A DNA stretch of 64,000 nt from a virus. Under the pieces are notes generated by a model that searched no databases, was not told the DNA's origin, and saw only the letters and a list, made by a program, of their open reading frames with translations. A program made the translations under genes and the position numbers. The stretch spans positions 59,632 through 123,631 of IMG/VR virus record IMGVR_UViG_3300026189_001009, one strand, 5' to 3'. Of this stretch, positions 14,892-62,100 are shown piece after piece (the first letter of the stretch is position 1; each line of letters starts with the position of its first letter).

Positions 14892-15797
14892 ATGATGAAT
14901 ATAAAAACTAATATTACAAAACACTTCTCGCAATTTGGTGTGGTGTTCTTCTGTTTGTTTATGTTTGCGACTATGGCACTTACTACTAGTATCTACGCAG
15001 ATGTAACAAACTCAGGAGCAACTACAAATACACAGACAAACCAATCAGGATCAAATACTACTATTTCAGGTGGTTATGCATCTGAGAGTACAACTACATA
15101 CCAGTCAGGATCGTCAAGCAACACGACAGCAACCACAACATCAACTACAAATAATAATTCAACAATACCAGTCCCCTCCGCAGGTGCTCCTTCAATGAGT
15201 GCTTATTCACAAGATGTTTGTGCAGTTGGTAGATCAGGTGGACTACAATTACCAGGCGTAGGTCTATCAGGTGGTAGTACAGCAAGAGATATGAACTGTG
15301 AAAGAATGAAACTGTCAAAACTTTTAAACGATTATGGTATGAAGGTAGCCGCAGTTGCAATTCTTTGTCAAGATCAACGTGTGTTTGAGGCCATGGAACA
15401 GGCCGGAACACCTTGTCCTTTCGAAGGTAAAATTGGTAAAGACGCTAAAGCACAATGGAGCAAGTATGACATTGAAAGACCAGACTACGACAAGTATGTT
15501 GAAAAAATGGAAGAGCGTTTAGAGATTGATGAGCGTATTATGAAAGAAGAAGGCATACTTGAAGAAAATGAAACTTTGAAAACTAACATCAAAGACGTTG
15601 CCAAAGAAAATAAAAACCTTGAAAAAGAAATTAAAAAGCTACAAGAAATGCAAATTGAACTGTTAAAGAAAACAGAAGAAGAAATTAGCAAAGTAGAAAC
15701 TGTAACAACTGAACCAGTTGTTATCGAAGAGTTACCACCTTTACATCATGAAAAGGACGGTCTGGAGGTAACTGATGGAAAAAAGTCCCAGGAATAA
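14892..15797 (+). CDS. Secreted protein with T/S-rich linker, Cys-rich core and coiled coil; candidate -1 frameshift extension to 15859
   Basis: Signal peptide (IYA-D), 4 Cys; TAAATA at 14865-14870. Confidence 0.75.
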   Translation: MMNIKTNITKHFSQFGVVFFCLFMFATMALTTSIYADVTNSGATTNTQTNQSGSNTTISGGYASESTTTYQSGSSSNTTATTTSTTNNNSTIPVPSAGAPSMSAYSQDVCAVGRSGGLQLPGVGLSGGSTARDMNCERMKLSKLLNDYGMKVAAVAILCQDQRVFEAMEQAGTPCPFEGKIGKDAKAQWSKYDIERPDYDKYVEKMEERLEIDERIMKEEGILEENETLKTNIKDVAKENKNLEKEIKKLQEMQIELLKKTEEEISKVETVTTEPVVIEELPPLHHEKDGLEVTDGKKSQE

Positions 15798-15859
15798 TAA
15801 AATACACTAGACCCCTCCTTATGATTGCGGGTCTTCTCTTATTTGGAATAGGAATGTAA
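15764..15859 (+). other. Candidate programmed -1 frameshift cassette
   Basis: GGAGG 15764-15768, 10-nt spacer, in-frame A_AAA_AAG 15779-15785; -1 frame VPGIIKYTRPLLMIAGLLLFGIGM*. Confidence 0.65.
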
Positions 15860-15862
15860 TTT

Positions 15863-17872
15863 ATGTTATCTAAACATATAGTTCGTTCGTTCTTATTTGC
15901 ATTGGCATTAACAGCCACAACAGCATTTATACAAAACACAGACGTTTATGCAAATCCTACATCAGTAACAACCTGTACAGAGAACGCACTTGGCGATCAA
16001 ACTTGTACAACAGTAACTACCACAACCACGACTACCAACACCCCAGGAACAACTACAGGAAACGTTTTATCTAATTCAACATTTGGAACAGGCACAGATC
16101 CTAATGAAACAACCACTACGACTGGTTGGAGCGGTGATGGGCATTTACATACTCACCAAATGTTTGGCCAAAACATGGGTAATCCACAAAGTGGACAAGA
16201 CATCACAGGTGGTGTTTATGCTTTTGAAGGTGACCCGTCAGATAACGTTTATCAAGATACAGATTTAGTAGGTGACGGACATTTAACAAAGTCACAAATA
16301 AATGAGGGATTTACTTCCACTCAATCAGCAGACATATGGTTTTGGAATAGTCTTAAAAATACTTTAACAATAAAACAGACTATCACGGACAGTGATGGCA
16401 ACGTAACAACTCAAACAAGAGTTATTGTGGACCACGATCCAACTAGAAGCATGAACGGTGGTTCATGGAGCAACGAAACAAATGTGTACACACACTCATC
16501 AAACACAGCCGATGATATCACAATCAGAGCTGAAATGTATAATGAAACAGATGGGACTAGGTATGATCACAGTCACTATGGACCAGATGTTGATAACTTT
16601 GAGTTATCTATTACCACAGCAGGCGGCACTAGCACTAGTTCAAGTTCAACATCATCAACAGTGGTGACTCTTTGTGCAGATAGAAATCCGCCAACGTGTA
16701 CAACAGCTAGTGATGATATTGATGAAGCCACACAACCAATCACAGGTGATGACGGACAATCAATTGATCAGTCAATCGAAACCATAATTGAAAATGAAGT
16801 TATTGATGTTGATGTAAATCCTGTAGTTGAACAAGAAATTTATGTTGTACAAACAGTAATAGAAGTTGAAGATGATTTTGGTGTAACTGAAGAGCTTACC
16901 ATACAAGAATTTGTTCAAGACACATTCACAGATATGTTAGAAGAAAATGGATTAGAAGAAGAATTTCAAGATGCATTAGGTGAAGAAGGTATCACAGAAG
17001 AAGAATTTTTTGAAGAACTTGCAAACGAGATGGAAAACGAATTTGCAGAAAGTGGTATGGAAAGTTTCACTGATACAAATACAGATGCTTTACCGCCAAT
17101 AGAAGAAGATACAGCAGTAGAAGAACCAACAGAAAATACAGAAGTTGAAACAGAAACAGTAGTAGAAGAAACACCTACAGAATCAGAAACAGTAAATACC
17201 AGTGATGAAGCAGTAGAGTCAGAAACAGAAACAACTGAAACAAATACTGAACCAGAAAGTACAGAAAGTGAAACAGATACATCTAGTGAAACATCAGAAG
17301 CTGGTAACGAAGAGACAACTACCGAAACCCAAAGCCAAGAGGGTGACACCGAGTCTGAGGAAACAACATCAGAGAGCTCTACTGAACAAGAAGAGTCCAG
17401 TGGTAATGTGGAGGAGTCAGTGGAGGACGGTGAATCGAACACCGGCGATGAAGAAGCAGGAAATACAGACGCGAGTGTTGACGGAGAAGTAGATTCAGAA
17501 GTTGGTGAAATTACTAAAAAAGTTGAAAAGATTATTAAAAAATTAACAGCAAAATTAAAAAATCTTGATCAAAAATTAAAAGTCATATCAATGGTAACTC
17601 AACAAGCAATGATAAATGATCAACCAGATATGTCAGAATATACACAAACACAGTTTTATGACACAAGAACAATACCAGATAATCCAGACTGGTATGCAGA
17701 AGATACTATATTAAATGCTTATAGTAGATCCATTTACCAAGATAAAACATTAGTAGCTTACCAAAGGAATGATCCTATGTTTAAGTATAATGAAGCGGTA
17801 AATAAAGTAAACAACACAATCAGCCGATTAGAGGCTGAACTTGAGGTATTAAAAAATGAAAATAATAGATAA
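15863..17872 (+). CDS. Large secreted acidic protein
   Basis: Signal peptide, beta-rich domain, long E/T/S linker, C-terminal coiled coil. Confidence 0.75.
   Translation: MLSKHIVRSFLFALALTATTAFIQNTDVYANPTSVTTCTENALGDQTCTTVTTTTTTTNTPGTTTGNVLSNSTFGTGTDPNETTTTTGWSGDGHLHTHQMFGQNMGNPQSGQDITGGVYAFEGDPSDNVYQDTDLVGDGHLTKSQINEGFTSTQSADIWFWNSLKNTLTIKQTITDSDGNVTTQTRVIVDHDPTRSMNGGSWSNETNVYTHSSNTADDITIRAEMYNETDGTRYDHSHYGPDVDNFELSITTAGGTSTSSSSTSSTVVTLCADRNPPTCTTASDDIDEATQPITGDDGQSIDQSIETIIENEVIDVDVNPVVEQEIYVVQTVIEVEDDFGVTEELTIQEFVQDTFTDMLEENGLEEEFQDALGEEGITEEEFFEELANEMENEFAESGMESFTDTNTDALPPIEEDTAVEEPTENTEVETETVVEETPTESETVNTSDEAVESETETTETNTEPESTESETDTSSETSEAGNEETTTETQSQEGDTESEETTSESSTEQEESSGNVEESVEDGESNTGDEEAGNTDASVDGEVDSEVGEITKKVEKIIKKLTAKLKNLDQKLKVISMVTQQAMINDQPDMSEYTQTQFYDTRTIPDNPDWYAEDTILNAYSRSIYQDKTLVAYQRNDPMFKYNEAVNKVNNTISRLEAELEVLKNENNR
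17040..17510 (+). repeat. Low-complexity Glu/Thr/Ser coding tract
   Basis: Repeated GAA-ACA units (ETETTETNTE...); bounds approximate. Confidence 0.65.
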
Positions 17873-18251
17873 ACTTACAACTTATGCATCTTTAATTGGC
17901 GTGATAGGCGCTATTGGTGGAGGCTTCTATGCTTGGGGTGAGTTCAACACAAGATTATCAGCAATTGAAAACAAAGACTTTGTTGTTAATGAAACAGTTG
18001 ATCTTACTGGTGTAAACGATAAAATCGCAAATATCAGAGTAGAAGTAATTGATAGAATCAAAATAATTGAAGATAAAATGAGTTCAGAATCAGATCAAGG
18101 TATAAATGAACTTTGGGCAGACGTAGAAGAACTATGGGCAGAAATGGCTGAAGCACAAAAAGATATCGCGATCGTAGAAAAAGAAAACGAACTACAAGAC
18201 TCTAAAATTGAAGCAATAAGATTAAAAGCTACTAATCCACTTGCAAACTAA
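17856..18251 (+). CDS. Membrane-anchored coiled-coil protein
   Basis: N-terminal TM (LIGVIGAIGGGFYAW), heptads, NPLAN end. Confidence 0.7.
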   Translation: MKIIDKLTTYASLIGVIGAIGGGFYAWGEFNTRLSAIENKDFVVNETVDLTGVNDKIANIRVEVIDRIKIIEDKMSSESDQGINELWADVEELWAEMAEAQKDIAIVEKENELQDSKIEAIRLKATNPLAN

Positions 18252-59155: not shown

Positions 59156-62100
59156 ATGGCAATAGGTCAAAGTAATAACCCTAATTTTAACGTACAGAGT
59201 CCGTCTAGTAACCAGACTCTAGTATATGACAGTACTCAGCAGGCATTTGTTAATACCACAAATAGTGTAACTGGCGCAATAACGGGTGCTACTAACCAAG
59301 GTGCTGGTAAAGAAGTATTCAAACAATTAAGCGGAACTGATCTCCAAATGAGATCATTAACAGCAGGTTCAGGAATATCTTTAGCACAAGGCACAGACGA
59401 CATTGTCATTACAGCTTCATCAACAGTTACAGGTGCCGCAAACATAGGAACAGGAACTGGATTTTTTAAACAATTAAATTCAGGAAGTTTAGAATTCAAA
59501 ACATTATCAGTTGGTACAGGATTAGCTTTAGCTAACTCGGCCACTGAAGTAACATTAACTTTAGCCAATGCAGATATTGATGCAGGTAAAGTTGGTGGAC
59601 AGTTAGCAAGTGCTTTTCTAACAAAAGCAGATAATTTAGCATCAGTAGGCAGTGTAGCAACAGCAAGAACAAATTTAAGTGTTTACAGTAAAGCAGAGAT
59701 AGATGCCTTTACAATTAAGAACAATGGTAACATTTTACCAGATGGTGACCTTACAAGAGATATAGGTAACAACTCATACAGATTTAATAACGTATATGCA
59801 AACACAATTCACGGTACGGCCACATCAGCGGGATCAGTGGCATCATTATCTAATAGAGAGATTGGTGACTTACAGAACGTTGATACTTCAGGTGTTGCCG
59901 CTAACACAGTTTTAGGTTGGAATGGATCCAAGTGGGTACCAACAGCAACATCAGGATTAATAAGCACAACAGACTTTGCACAGAAGTCACAGAATTTAGC
60001 TGACTTAGGTAGCTCAGCAACAGCAAGAACTAACTTAGGTGTTTATTCAAAAACAGAAACAGACAATAGATATTTTTCAAAGAATGCAGGTGGATTACCA
60101 GGAAGCGATAATGGTGTTGACTTAGGTAATAACTCATACAGATTTGCAAACATCTACGCAGTAAACTTTCAAGGAACTGCAACTAATGCCGGAACAGTAA
60201 ATTCAATTGCCGACCATGACTTAGGAGACTTACAAAATGTTGACACATCAGGAAAAGCTTCAGGTCATGTATTAAGTTGGAATGGAACTAAATGGGTTTC
60301 AAGTGCAGATTCATCACCGAGCTCACTTGCTGGATTATCAGATGTTGATATATCTGGTATTGCAAACGGCCAGGTAATAAAATATAATTCAAGTACTTCA
60401 AAATTTGAACCAGGTGATGCATCAGGATCAGGTGCAACTACTTTCGTAGGACTAACAGACACACCAGCTAACTTCTCAGGTGCGGCAAATAGATTTGTAA
60501 AAGTTAATTCGTCAGGTAATGCATTAGAGTTTGTTGCAAAAACTTTCTTAGAAGATCTATCAGGATTAAACACAGGTAACCTAACAGAAGGTTCAAATTT
60601 ATATTTCACTAATGCTAGAGCAGATGCACGTATAGGTGCCGCAAGTATTAATGCACTTTCAGATGTTGATACTTCAGGTATATCATCAGGACAAGTATTA
60701 ACTTGGAATGGTTCTTCATTTGTTGCCGCTTCAACAGGAGCAGGTGATATTACAGCCGTTATTGCAGGTACAGGTTTAACAGGTGGTGCAACTTCAGGTT
60801 CAGCAACATTAAACGTTGATGTAGGAACAGGTGCAAACAAAATTGTACAACTAGATGGCACAGGTAAGCTACCATCAGTAGATGGATCAAACCTAACAGG
60901 AATTTCAGCTTCAACAACTTTCGTAGCATTAACAGACACACCGGCTAACTTCTCAGGTGCATCAAGCAAGTTTGTAAAAGTTAATTCGGCGGGCAACGCA
61001 TTAGAGTATGTTGCAGACCCAGGTTACTTAACATCGGAAACATTTACAAGTTTAGTACAAGACACAACACCACAGTTAGGTGGAACACTAGATGCTAACG
61101 GTAATACAATTGACATGGGTACGAATGTATTAACTGATACTAACCTAGGACAATTTATTACAGCATATGGTTGGGGTAACCATGCAAGTGCAGGTTACTT
61201 AACAAGTGTACCAGCACAGTCATTCGCTTCATTATCAGGTAAGCCAACTACAATAGCTGGTTACGGAATTACAGATGCATTTGATGGAGCATTTGGATCT
61301 TTAACAGGTAAGCCAACTACAATAGCTGGTTACGGAATTACAAATTTAAATGCATCAATAGATGCACACTTGAATCAATCAAATCCAACATCGGGATATG
61401 TTCTTTCATGGAACGGTTCGGACTATGCTTGGGTGGCACAGTCAGGTGGCGGTGGCGGCGGAGACATTACGGCCGTTGTCGCAGGAACTGGATTAACAGG
61501 TGGTGCAACATCTGGATCAGCAACTTTAAATGTTGATGTAGGTACAAGTGCAAACAAGATTGTACAACTAGATGGCTCAGCTAAACTACCAGCAGTAGAT
61601 GGATCACAGTTAACAAATATTGATTACACTGTAGGAGTTGACGAAATTAAAGATACAATGATTGACTTTGGTACTGGTACAGGCCAAGTGTCAACAGCAG
61701 ATATTCCTGAAAGTACAAATTTATATTATACAGATGCAAGATTCGACACAAGGTTATCAACCAAGTCAACAACTAATTTATCAGAAGGCACAAACCTTTA
61801 CTACACTGACGCTAGAGTTGATGCAAGATTTGACACAAGACTTGCAACTAAAGACACAGGTGATTTAGCAGAAGGTTCAAATTTATATTTCACTAATGCA
61901 AGAGCTGATGCAAGAATTTCAAATGCAGTATTGAGTGCATTATCAAATGTACACACAGCGGCTCCGTCAGATGGACAAGTACTTGCATGGGATAACGCAA
62001 ACAGCAGATGGGCACCTTCGAACACAGGTGCTGGAGATATTACAGCAGTTGTCGCCGGTACTGGATTAACAGGTGGTGCAACTTCAGGTTCGGCAACTTT

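Follow-up and report, generated by a model that had tools for sequence, protein, structure and literature searches.

Programmed frameshifting in tailed phages is, to our knowledge, almost confined to tail assembly chaperones, with a few capsid and tail proteins besides. Outside phages, a -1 shift on the slippery heptamer A_AAA_AAG occurs in Escherichia coli dnaX and in the insertion sequence IS911, where this heptamer, an upstream Shine-Dalgarno (SD) sequence and a sole tRNA-Lys(UUU) constitute the most shift-prone setting. The optimal spacing between SD and heptamer for stimulating the -1 shift is about 10-14 nucleotides. Here we analyse the 3' end of a gene for an exported protein (gene A) in a stretch of 64,000 nucleotides, hereafter the window (positions 59,632 to 123,631 of the IMG/VR record IMGVR_UViG_3300026189_001009), which belongs to a metagenome-assembled phage contig of 123.6 kb and has a G+C content of 34%. 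We consider it likely, at a probability of roughly 85%, that this 3' end is a conserved programmed -1 recoding site from which two proteins would be made from one gene. The claim rests on the sequence elements themselves, their conservation, the coding signature of the added tail, the lack of a start codon in that tail, the absence of in-frame fusions and the tRNA set of the host.

The locus shares with E. coli dnaX the heptamer, an SD-like motif 10 nucleotides upstream and a host with tRNA-Lys(UUU) only, as well as two products with a common N-terminal body and different C-termini. In dnaX, however, it is the shorter product that results from the shift, and a strong stem-loop 6 nucleotides downstream is essential for high efficiency, whereas in the window the shifted product is longer, significant downstream structure is lacking, and the protein is exported rather than a replication factor. 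IS911 and other IS3-family transposase genes likewise combine A_AAA_AAG with an upstream SD-like stimulator and a longer fusion product. They differ in fusing two sizeable open reading frames (OrfA-OrfB), while the window adds only 24 residues without a fold of their own. Transcriptional slippage of the Thermus thermophilus dnaX/IS type, on A9-type runs, resembles the situation in 31 of 49 tail-bearing relatives of gene A, which have runs of A8-A10 and mostly no SD-like motif, but not that in the window, where the run is A6 only.

In biological logic the closest match is the Ebola virus glycoprotein, for which the relevant passages of PMC5009743 describe editing of an A7 run that determines whether this exported glycoprotein is soluble or transmembrane. 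By contrast with the window, Ebola virus is a eukaryotic RNA virus, the two forms arise by polymerase stuttering, and the added part is large compared to a tail of 24 residues. The tail assembly chaperones G/GT of tailed phages (Xu, Hendrix and Duda 2004, as cited in PMC8163748) also arise by a conserved -1 shift, close to a phage gene's 3' end, that yields two proteins from one start. Their extension binds the tape measure protein and they occupy another genome position, unlike the exported four-cysteine gene with its hydrophobic tail in the window. In bacteriophage MS2, expression of the lysis gene depends on frameshifted ribosomes that stop near its start (Kastelein 1982, as summarised in PMC10885494). 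Shifted ribosomes would similarly terminate beside a downstream start in the window, 3 nucleotides from the ATG of the following gene B; the shifted peptide of MS2, however, has no function of its own, whereas the tail peptide in the window is under selection. By analogy, the signal may be likened to dnaX/IS911, the outcome to Ebola glycoprotein editing, and the conservation of a phage 3'-end shift to G/GT. The mechanism class is known; new are the gene family, the proposed use for a free versus a tethered form, and the trade-off between run length and SD motif. A description of the slip site was not found in the literature on pelagiphages, pelagimyophages and phage frameshifting, although supplementary gene tables, which lay outside this search, could mention the reading frames. 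In PMC7029224, the terms frameshift, slippage, signal peptide and transmembrane do not occur.

The elements at the end of gene A are arranged as follows (ORF, open reading frame).

14,892-15,797, plus strand: gene A, 0-frame ORF of 301 amino acids with signal peptide, Thr/Ser-rich stretch, four-Cys core and long C-terminal helix
15,764-15,768, plus strand: SD-like GGAGG, 10 nucleotides upstream of the heptamer, proposed frameshift stimulator
15,773-15,775, plus strand: TGA in the -1 frame, directly 5' of the slip site, blocking upstream entry to the -1 ORF
15,775-15,810, plus strand: ORF of 11 codons (MEKSPRNNKIH-stop) in the +1 frame, its ATG 6 nucleotides after GGAGG
15,779-15,785, plus strand: slippery heptamer A_AAA_AAG (A6 run) in X_XXY_YYZ phase, codons K297-K298 of gene A
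15,785-15,859, plus strand: -1 frame tail, 24 codons (VPGIIKYTRPLLMIAGLLLFGIGM) followed by TAA at 15,857-15,859
15,795-15,797, plus strand: 0-frame stop TAA, 66 nucleotides before the start of gene B

The 3' end of gene A reads GGA AAA AAG TCC CAG GAA TAA, and the ATG of gene B at 15,863 lies 3 nucleotides past the tail TAA. An earlier note on this DNA had described an in-frame A_AAA_AAG with GGAGG exactly 10 nucleotides upstream, and a -1 frame that is open to 15,859, has a stop just upstream and is followed by the next ATG at 15,863; direct reading confirmed both. In-frame ribosomes would stop three codons after the heptamer and produce the 301-residue precursor of an exported, disulfide-containing protein. 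Ribosomes shifted to -1 at K297-K298 would add 24 residues, of which the last 15 are hydrophobic, so that the predicted trans-frame product comprises 322 amino acids (298 + 24) and reads (KK)VPGIIKYTRPLLMIAGLLLFGIGM after the slip. Both Lys tRNAs would re-pair on A_AAA_AAG, aided by anti-SD pairing with GGAGG and by a host with tRNA-Lys(UUU) only. The hydrophobic end would then hold the exported protein at the inner membrane, resulting in a free periplasmic and a tethered form, and the shifted ribosomes, terminating just before the gene B ATG, may reinitiate there. As a side observation, GGAGG at 15,764-15,768 is complementary to CCTCC at 15,816-15,820 in the tail-coding region, 47 nucleotides downstream, and a putative long-range pairing of the two would enclose the heptamer.

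Strong evidence comes from the relatives of gene A. Homologues were taken from GenBank phages, from IMG/VR with the window and Mosig proteins, and from metagenome and genome contigs; of the 244 stretches, 17 that were truncated or had no G[TS]PCP anchor were left out, and merging of duplicates gave 159 distinct loci. A tail locus was defined as one with a -1 ORF of at least 12 codons beyond the 0-frame stop, a hydrophobic end and no ATG before the hydrophobic segment. Such a tail is present in 49 of the 159 loci. All 49 possess an in-phase X_XXY_YYZ heptamer within the 7-64 nucleotide overlap, which is A_AAA_AA[A/G/C] in 48 of them; the exception, L133, has no A run and displays other X_XXY_YYZ motifs. 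An in-phase A6R occurs in the last 60 nucleotides of only five of the 110 non-tail loci (Fisher p ~1e-33, uncorrected for relatedness). The non-tail loci include L148, in effect a 50th tail locus, whose hydrophobicity of 1.9 is just below the threshold. No ATG, GTG or TTG precedes the hydrophobic part in 47 of the 49 tails, and independent initiation is therefore excluded. A hydrophobic tail fused in frame to the 0-frame C-terminus was found in none of the 159 loci, the two flagged as fused by the threshold being internal AIIIPLPKP stretches. The possibility that homologues lack the site, which the earlier note had raised against itself, has consequently not been realised.

The tails form at least five subgroups with unalike sequences, all of which begin at the A run and end hydrophobic (...LWITxPLxLLFGVAL; ...KKWILLPLTLLFGVPL; ...FIGFILFVFFLI; ...SWRYLLLLLLFVGVLI; ...IVFSILFFGIIF; and the window type ...PLLxxxGLLLFGxxx). 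The split form is kept across considerable divergence, as core identity to the window is 49-57% in the tail-bearing Mosig-like rows L084-L141. The isolated phage Mosig (MT647606) itself carries the frameshift arrangement, which is unannotated there. In a tree of the gene A family, a clade of 47 podophage-type rows is without tails and both other groups have them, but the tail criterion of the tree was too strict and mislabelled at least ten tail loci (L201, L206, L209, L212, L214, L215, L217 and L247 as "none", L136 and L148 as "S"), for which reason counts of state changes were not used.

The 0-frame ending appears to be maintained alongside the tail. In Mosig-like loci the 0-frame end past the heptamer is conserved (...N-x-[GP]-[GP]-[KR]), also in tail-less relatives, which argues that both C-termini are used. 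More widely, a motif N-x-[GPA]-[GP]-[KR]-stop recurs at the 0-frame C-termini of L004, L005, L007, L084, L088, L100, L106, L136 and others, in family members with or without tail; the 0-frame end of the window, KKSQE, is without this motif. Two further layouts at the slip site deserve mention. In L112, L114, L127 and L130 the 0-frame stop TAG directly follows A_AAA_AAG, with GGAGG 9 nucleotides upstream (a "shifty stop" layout), and the -1 tail is long (40-42 amino acids). Among metagenome contigs, L204 is near-identical upstream (...EGFEEKK) to L201 and L212 and has the same in-phase A7G, yet continues in frame to ...FNSAGK-stop and then gene B without a tail, while L201 is tailed. To judge from this comparison, the slip site seems to be the very place at which a tail is gained or lost.

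The pattern of variation in the tail frame has the signature of a coding sequence. In the window subgroup (10 sequences, with no other overlapping gene) the last 15 tail codons have entropies of 0.95, 0.19 and 1.27 at codon positions 1, 2 and 3, and the ratio of nonsynonymous to synonymous differences (pN/pS) is 0.42 in the tail frame versus 0.60 and 6.27 in the other two frames. The corresponding entropies in the Mosig subgroup (26 sequences) are 0.61, 0.39 and 0.87. In L193, a relative with 85% identity, TCC is changed to TAC right after the heptamer, which replaces Ser by Tyr in the 0 frame and is synonymous (GTC to GTA) in the tail frame. Likewise, the sole substitution within 15,785-15,859 in other samples, C to T at 15,838, is synonymous in the tail frame. 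We interpret these patterns of substitution as selection on the tail peptide.

The A run itself is hardly an artefact. Homopolymers are error-prone in some sequencing technologies and the window derives from a metagenome assembly, so that the true gene might be continuous, or a recent indel might have inactivated it. However, positions 15,779-15,785 are covered without indel and with an A6 majority in contigs from the runs X1, X3, X4 and X6 of four studies; X1 is possibly the source run of the window, and as only contigs were compared, rare variants would be invisible. The RNA runs X15-X20 contain no more than small portions of the window. X6 represents a strain with about 3% divergence (16 substitutions over 544 nucleotides), and L193 keeps the A6 run as well. 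The fused form expected under an error is found in none of the 159 loci, which come from hundreds of assemblies. The indel error that the earlier note had named as a possible refutation can hence be given practically no credence.

The lengths of the A run in the tail loci are distributed as follows.

A6: 6 loci
A7: 11 loci
A8: 4 loci
A9: 22 loci
A10: 5 loci

An SD-like 5-mer (GGAGG, AGGAG, GAGGG or GAGGT) ending 5-17 nucleotides upstream is present in 14 of the 18 loci with short runs (up to 7, with L133 placed in this group) versus 2 of the 31 with long runs of 8-10 (Fisher p = 4e-7). In the short-run lineages Mosig/L084, L112/114/127/130, L201/212 and L206/209/217/247 the motif lies 9-17 nucleotides upstream and no ATG follows, hence it cannot be a start signal there. 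The earlier note had allowed that GGAGG only initiates the 11-codon ORF at 15,775; with the SD-like motif recurring in four lineages without an ATG, this no longer holds. The ATG at 15,775 is not conserved in Mosig, L084, L112-type and L201-type loci, all of which keep the motif, and the 11-codon ORF is probably incidental. SD motifs precede 24 of the 70 ORFs in the window against a background of 8%; this enrichment at phage gene starts implies that anti-SD pairing is in use.

Two Pelagibacteraceae genomes, G001 and G002, each possess one tRNA-Lys (UUU) and no CUU, and there is no tRNA-Lys among the eight tRNAs of the phage contig. G001 was reached via a phage-bearing contig of a single-cell genome, and G002 is a relative with a completeness of at least 97%. 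Of the tRNA hits, 29 of 30 were decoded in G001 and 31 of 32 in G002; the one left undecoded was identified by eye as tRNA-Thr(GGT) in G002, and the equal-scoring hit of G001 is assumed to be the same. This tRNA was missed by ARAGORN and found by Rfam. The two genomes (loci L167-L192 and L273-L301) have a minimal set of 30-32 tRNA genes, with single U34 tRNAs for Lys, Glu and Gln and both U34 and C34 tRNAs for Leu(UUR) and Arg(AGR). Because the dnaX/IS911 setting of heptamer, SD motif and tRNA-Lys(UUU)-only host is present, the shift in the window, if the recoding site is real, is probably ribosomal and dnaX-like.

The position of the tail stop suggests a second role of the shift. It overlaps the next ATG or lies within 7 nucleotides of it in 43 of the 49 tail loci; in the tail-less relatives read (L004-L007 and several more) the 0-frame stop is 2-3 nucleotides from the gene B ATG. 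It is therefore plausible that the shift brings ribosomes to where gene B begins and so couples the translation of the two genes.

Between genes A and B some relatives carry an unannotated family of small ORFs of 34-42 amino acids (gene S), which is absent from the window and is located at L001:2031-2150 in Mosig and at L002:2529-2642 in HTVC202P. Its layout is M-hydrophobic segment-...FADDINPYNFSKRK, with the end ...F(A/M)(D/H)x(I/L)NPY(N/D)FS(K/N)(R/K)K. It overlaps the signal-peptide codons of gene B. Where gene S stands alone, in other relatives, it starts at or near the gene A stop, and its hydrophobic segment ...[FI]G[VA]... resembles the tails. In Mosig-like loci, gene S is retained and additionally overlaps the tail in the third frame, with an invariant ATG embedded in tail NNA-TGG codons; the base before TGG is there always A, whatever the residue. 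We infer from these sequences that the tail may derive from the N-terminal membrane segment of gene S.

Alternatives to a programmed ribosomal shift have to be weighed against this evidence. In transcriptional slippage, RNA polymerase would add one A, and the edited mRNA would be read through into the tail with the same two products. Bacterial RNA polymerases slip on runs of A8-A10, a length found in 31 of the 49 tail relatives, most of them without SD-like motif, and for these relatives polymerase slippage is a serious option. The editing of an A run in Ebola virus into soluble and transmembrane glycoproteins (PMC5009743) provides a precedent. Polymerase slippage leaves the pairing of short runs with SD-like motifs unexplained, and the motif in the window stands at a spacing that stimulates a ribosomal -1 shift. 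Moreover, the run of the window is only A6 followed by G, which is short for efficient polymerase slippage, with its threshold of about 8-9 identical bases. For the window we regard transcriptional slippage as unlikely. The tail might instead be an independent small membrane protein initiated at a start codon such as ATG 15,775, where GGAGG and an ATG 6 nucleotides on make an ideal ribosome-binding site; in favour of this is the stand-alone gene S at the same place in other relatives. That ATG, however, is in the +1 frame and its ORF stops after 11 codons, whereas a stop codon immediately ahead of the heptamer closes the tail frame, which is startless in all but two tail loci, so that this explanation is highly improbable.

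The shift might also be real and mainly serve to meter gene B by termination-reinitiation, the tail peptide being secondary. This would agree with the closeness of the tail stop to the next ATG, with the 0-frame stop taking that place in tail-less relatives, and with the weak AGGA that is the only motif upstream of the gene B ATG; the dependence of MS2 lysis gene expression on ribosomes terminating near its start, in the account given by PMC10885494, is comparable. Ribosome delivery, however, needs neither the nearly invariant second codon positions of the tail nor the hydrophobicity kept in subgroups with unrelated nucleotides. Metering as the main purpose is accordingly rather unlikely, but metering and tail roles are compatible with each other. 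Finally, the -1 ORF might never be translated and be the decaying relic of an old gene B signal peptide or of gene S, with the heptamer being simply two Lys codons. The tail shares the frame of gene B and is similar to signal-peptide n- and h-regions, its ...FG(V/I)... motif recalls the N-terminal segment of stand-alone gene S, the heptamer is common in the window, and five tail-less loci have an in-phase A6R. The complete linkage of tail and heptamer, the variation biased to third positions with a pN/pS of 0.42, and the persistence of an open, hydrophobic frame in five or more subgroups whose tails are otherwise dissimilar contradict a relic, which we deem very unlikely. A conserved programmed -1 recoding site thus accounts best for the observations.

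Several observations weigh against this reading and against the proposed function of the tail. The heptamer is common in the window: the 70 plus-strand ORFs that reach 100 amino acids contain ten copies of A_AAA_AAG in phase, and in-phase A_AAA_AAR sites number 24. Among these 24, the site at 15,779 is the only one with an SD-like 5-mer 7-17 nucleotides upstream, and among the ten A_AAA_AAG sites it has the longest -1 extension, 24 amino acids compared to 1-10 at the other nine. The heptamer alone is unremarkable in an AT-rich window; it is the conservation in relatives that indicates, at the level of sequence, that the arrangement is not due to chance. The locus counts are, on the other hand, not phylogenetically independent, and in two small subgroups pN/pS does not discriminate between frames (0.28 vs 0.32 and 0.84 vs 0.94). 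Both the gap and the tail are missing from the nearest relatives in IMG/VR, L004-L009 (59-76% identical); the gene A family can do without a tail. A downstream stem-loop, one of the three dnaX elements, is missing in the window: the 50 nucleotides downstream of the heptamer fold with -8.3 kcal/mol (z = -1.0), and a single hairpin begins 24 nucleotides downstream. Mosig and L084, in turn, have a 6-bp hairpin CCGGUG/CACCGG 6 nucleotides past the heptamer (z = -2.3 and -1.9). Of the features of a dnaX-type signal, the heptamer, the startless -1 ORF, the SD spacing and the host tRNA are thus present here and the downstream stem-loop is absent; the earlier note had named the heptamer and the SD motif. 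The host tRNA set depends on Pelagibacter being the host, an assignment suggested by phage relatedness only.

The shape of the tail also differs from that of a typical anchor. In a stop-transfer anchor, a hydrophobic helix some 18-22 residues long precedes basic residues that lie on the cytoplasmic side. The uncharged or hydrophobic run is 12-16 residues long across the 49 tails, in none of which K or R follows it, and the basic residues are on the N-terminal side of the run, unlike the textbook case. In the window, basic residues are followed by 15 uncharged residues of high hydrophobicity (H12 = 2.81) at the extreme C-terminus. A C-terminal sorting signal was considered and rejected, as the tails lack terminal basic residues and neither the window tail nor that of Mosig had an NCBIfam hit (E threshold 10) to signals of the PEP-CTERM, GlyGly-CTERM or LPXTG type. 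A search of PHROGs with tail and gene S was likewise without hit. On balance, we still find it somewhat more credible than otherwise that the tail anchors the gene A product at the inner membrane, with free and tethered forms side by side. The interpretation of the earlier note, a frameshift between soluble and membrane-bound forms, is supported in this sense, and the two isoforms would be made in a fixed ratio.

The protein encoded by gene A and the genes that follow it are characterised by these features.

14,892-15,005, plus strand: predicted cleavable signal peptide of gene A, residues 1-38, with putative cleavage between ...SIYA and DVT
15,863-17,872, plus strand: gene B, 669 amino acids with signal peptide, Thr-rich region, acidic spacer and C-terminal coiled coil
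17,856-18,251, plus strand: gene C, 131 amino acids with a hydrophobic N-terminal segment, then coiled coil; third in the A-B-C module

An alignment of 35 gene A homologues displays a conserved junction of A-x-A followed by D, with no Cys at +1 and hence no lipobox, and four invariant Cys columns in the core (C110, C136, C159 and C175). The product of gene A is probably an exported, disulfide-bonded protein. An AlphaFold2 model from the same alignment has a hydrophobic N-terminal helix at 5-34, strands at 111-132 and helices at 134-271, with a mean pLDDT (predicted local distance difference test) of only 59. With this model Foldseek gave no match in the PDB at E <= 0.001, the model being too weak for this to carry meaning. 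The sole family match of gene A is phrog_20531, whose annotation gives no function; Pfam has no family for any of the 35 homologues, and a search of the ESM Atlas with gene A returned unnamed viral clusters only. A unimolecular spanin combines a lipoprotein signal with lipobox Cys at the N-terminus and a C-terminal transmembrane domain. Gene A was rejected as a spanin of this kind (T1 gp11 type), as none of the 35 homologues has a lipobox Cys.

The DNA polymerase and other genes of the window match T4-like phage families. Among isolated phages, relatives of the window at the DNA level are Pelagibacter-infecting phages only, and a plasmid collection searched with the window gave no match. The neighbours of gene A are methyltransferase-like genes, tRNAs and exported proteins. 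Tail genes are absent from this neighbourhood, which bears out the distinction, already drawn in the earlier note, from the usual tail-chaperone frameshift. The phage contig has eight tRNA genes (Val, Asp, Ala(GGC), Glu, Thr, Asn, Ala(TGC) and Gly), four of which are inside the window. The A-B-C order is also annotated in Mosig, HTVC202P and HTVC033P, and the module (window 14,892-18,251; L001, L002, L003) is common to podovirus-type and T4-like pelagiphages. In HTVC033P it lies four genes downstream of a lysozyme gene. For gene B of HTVC202P (gp25), the annotated start at 2596 is probably 30 nucleotides late; from ATG 2566 (L002:2566-2598) it would have a full signal peptide, MQYIVSILLLMILTLTTSA..., resembling the one in gp45 of HTVC033P.

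SAR11 are the most abundant marine bacteria, and the A-B-C module spans both podo- and myoviruses that infect them. Frameshifting here appears to decide the location of an exported protein, free versus membrane-held. The annotations of Mosig and HTVC202P miss the predicted trans-frame product and the small overlapping membrane gene. The family constitutes a natural experiment in which run length is traded against an SD stimulator across lineages, in a host with a minimal tRNA set. It also offers a handle on a conserved envelope module, for which lysis, superinfection exclusion or surface remodelling are possible functions. More tentatively, all parts might be joined: short A6-A7 runs would shift with an internal SD motif and bare A8-A10 runs by polymerase or unaided ribosomal slippage, the tail would have been captured from gene S, and the shift would tether a set fraction of the gene A product and feed gene B. 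If this joint reading, which we offer only as a possibility, is true, the shift would fix the proportions of the three proteins in an envelope complex of a very abundant group of ocean phages.

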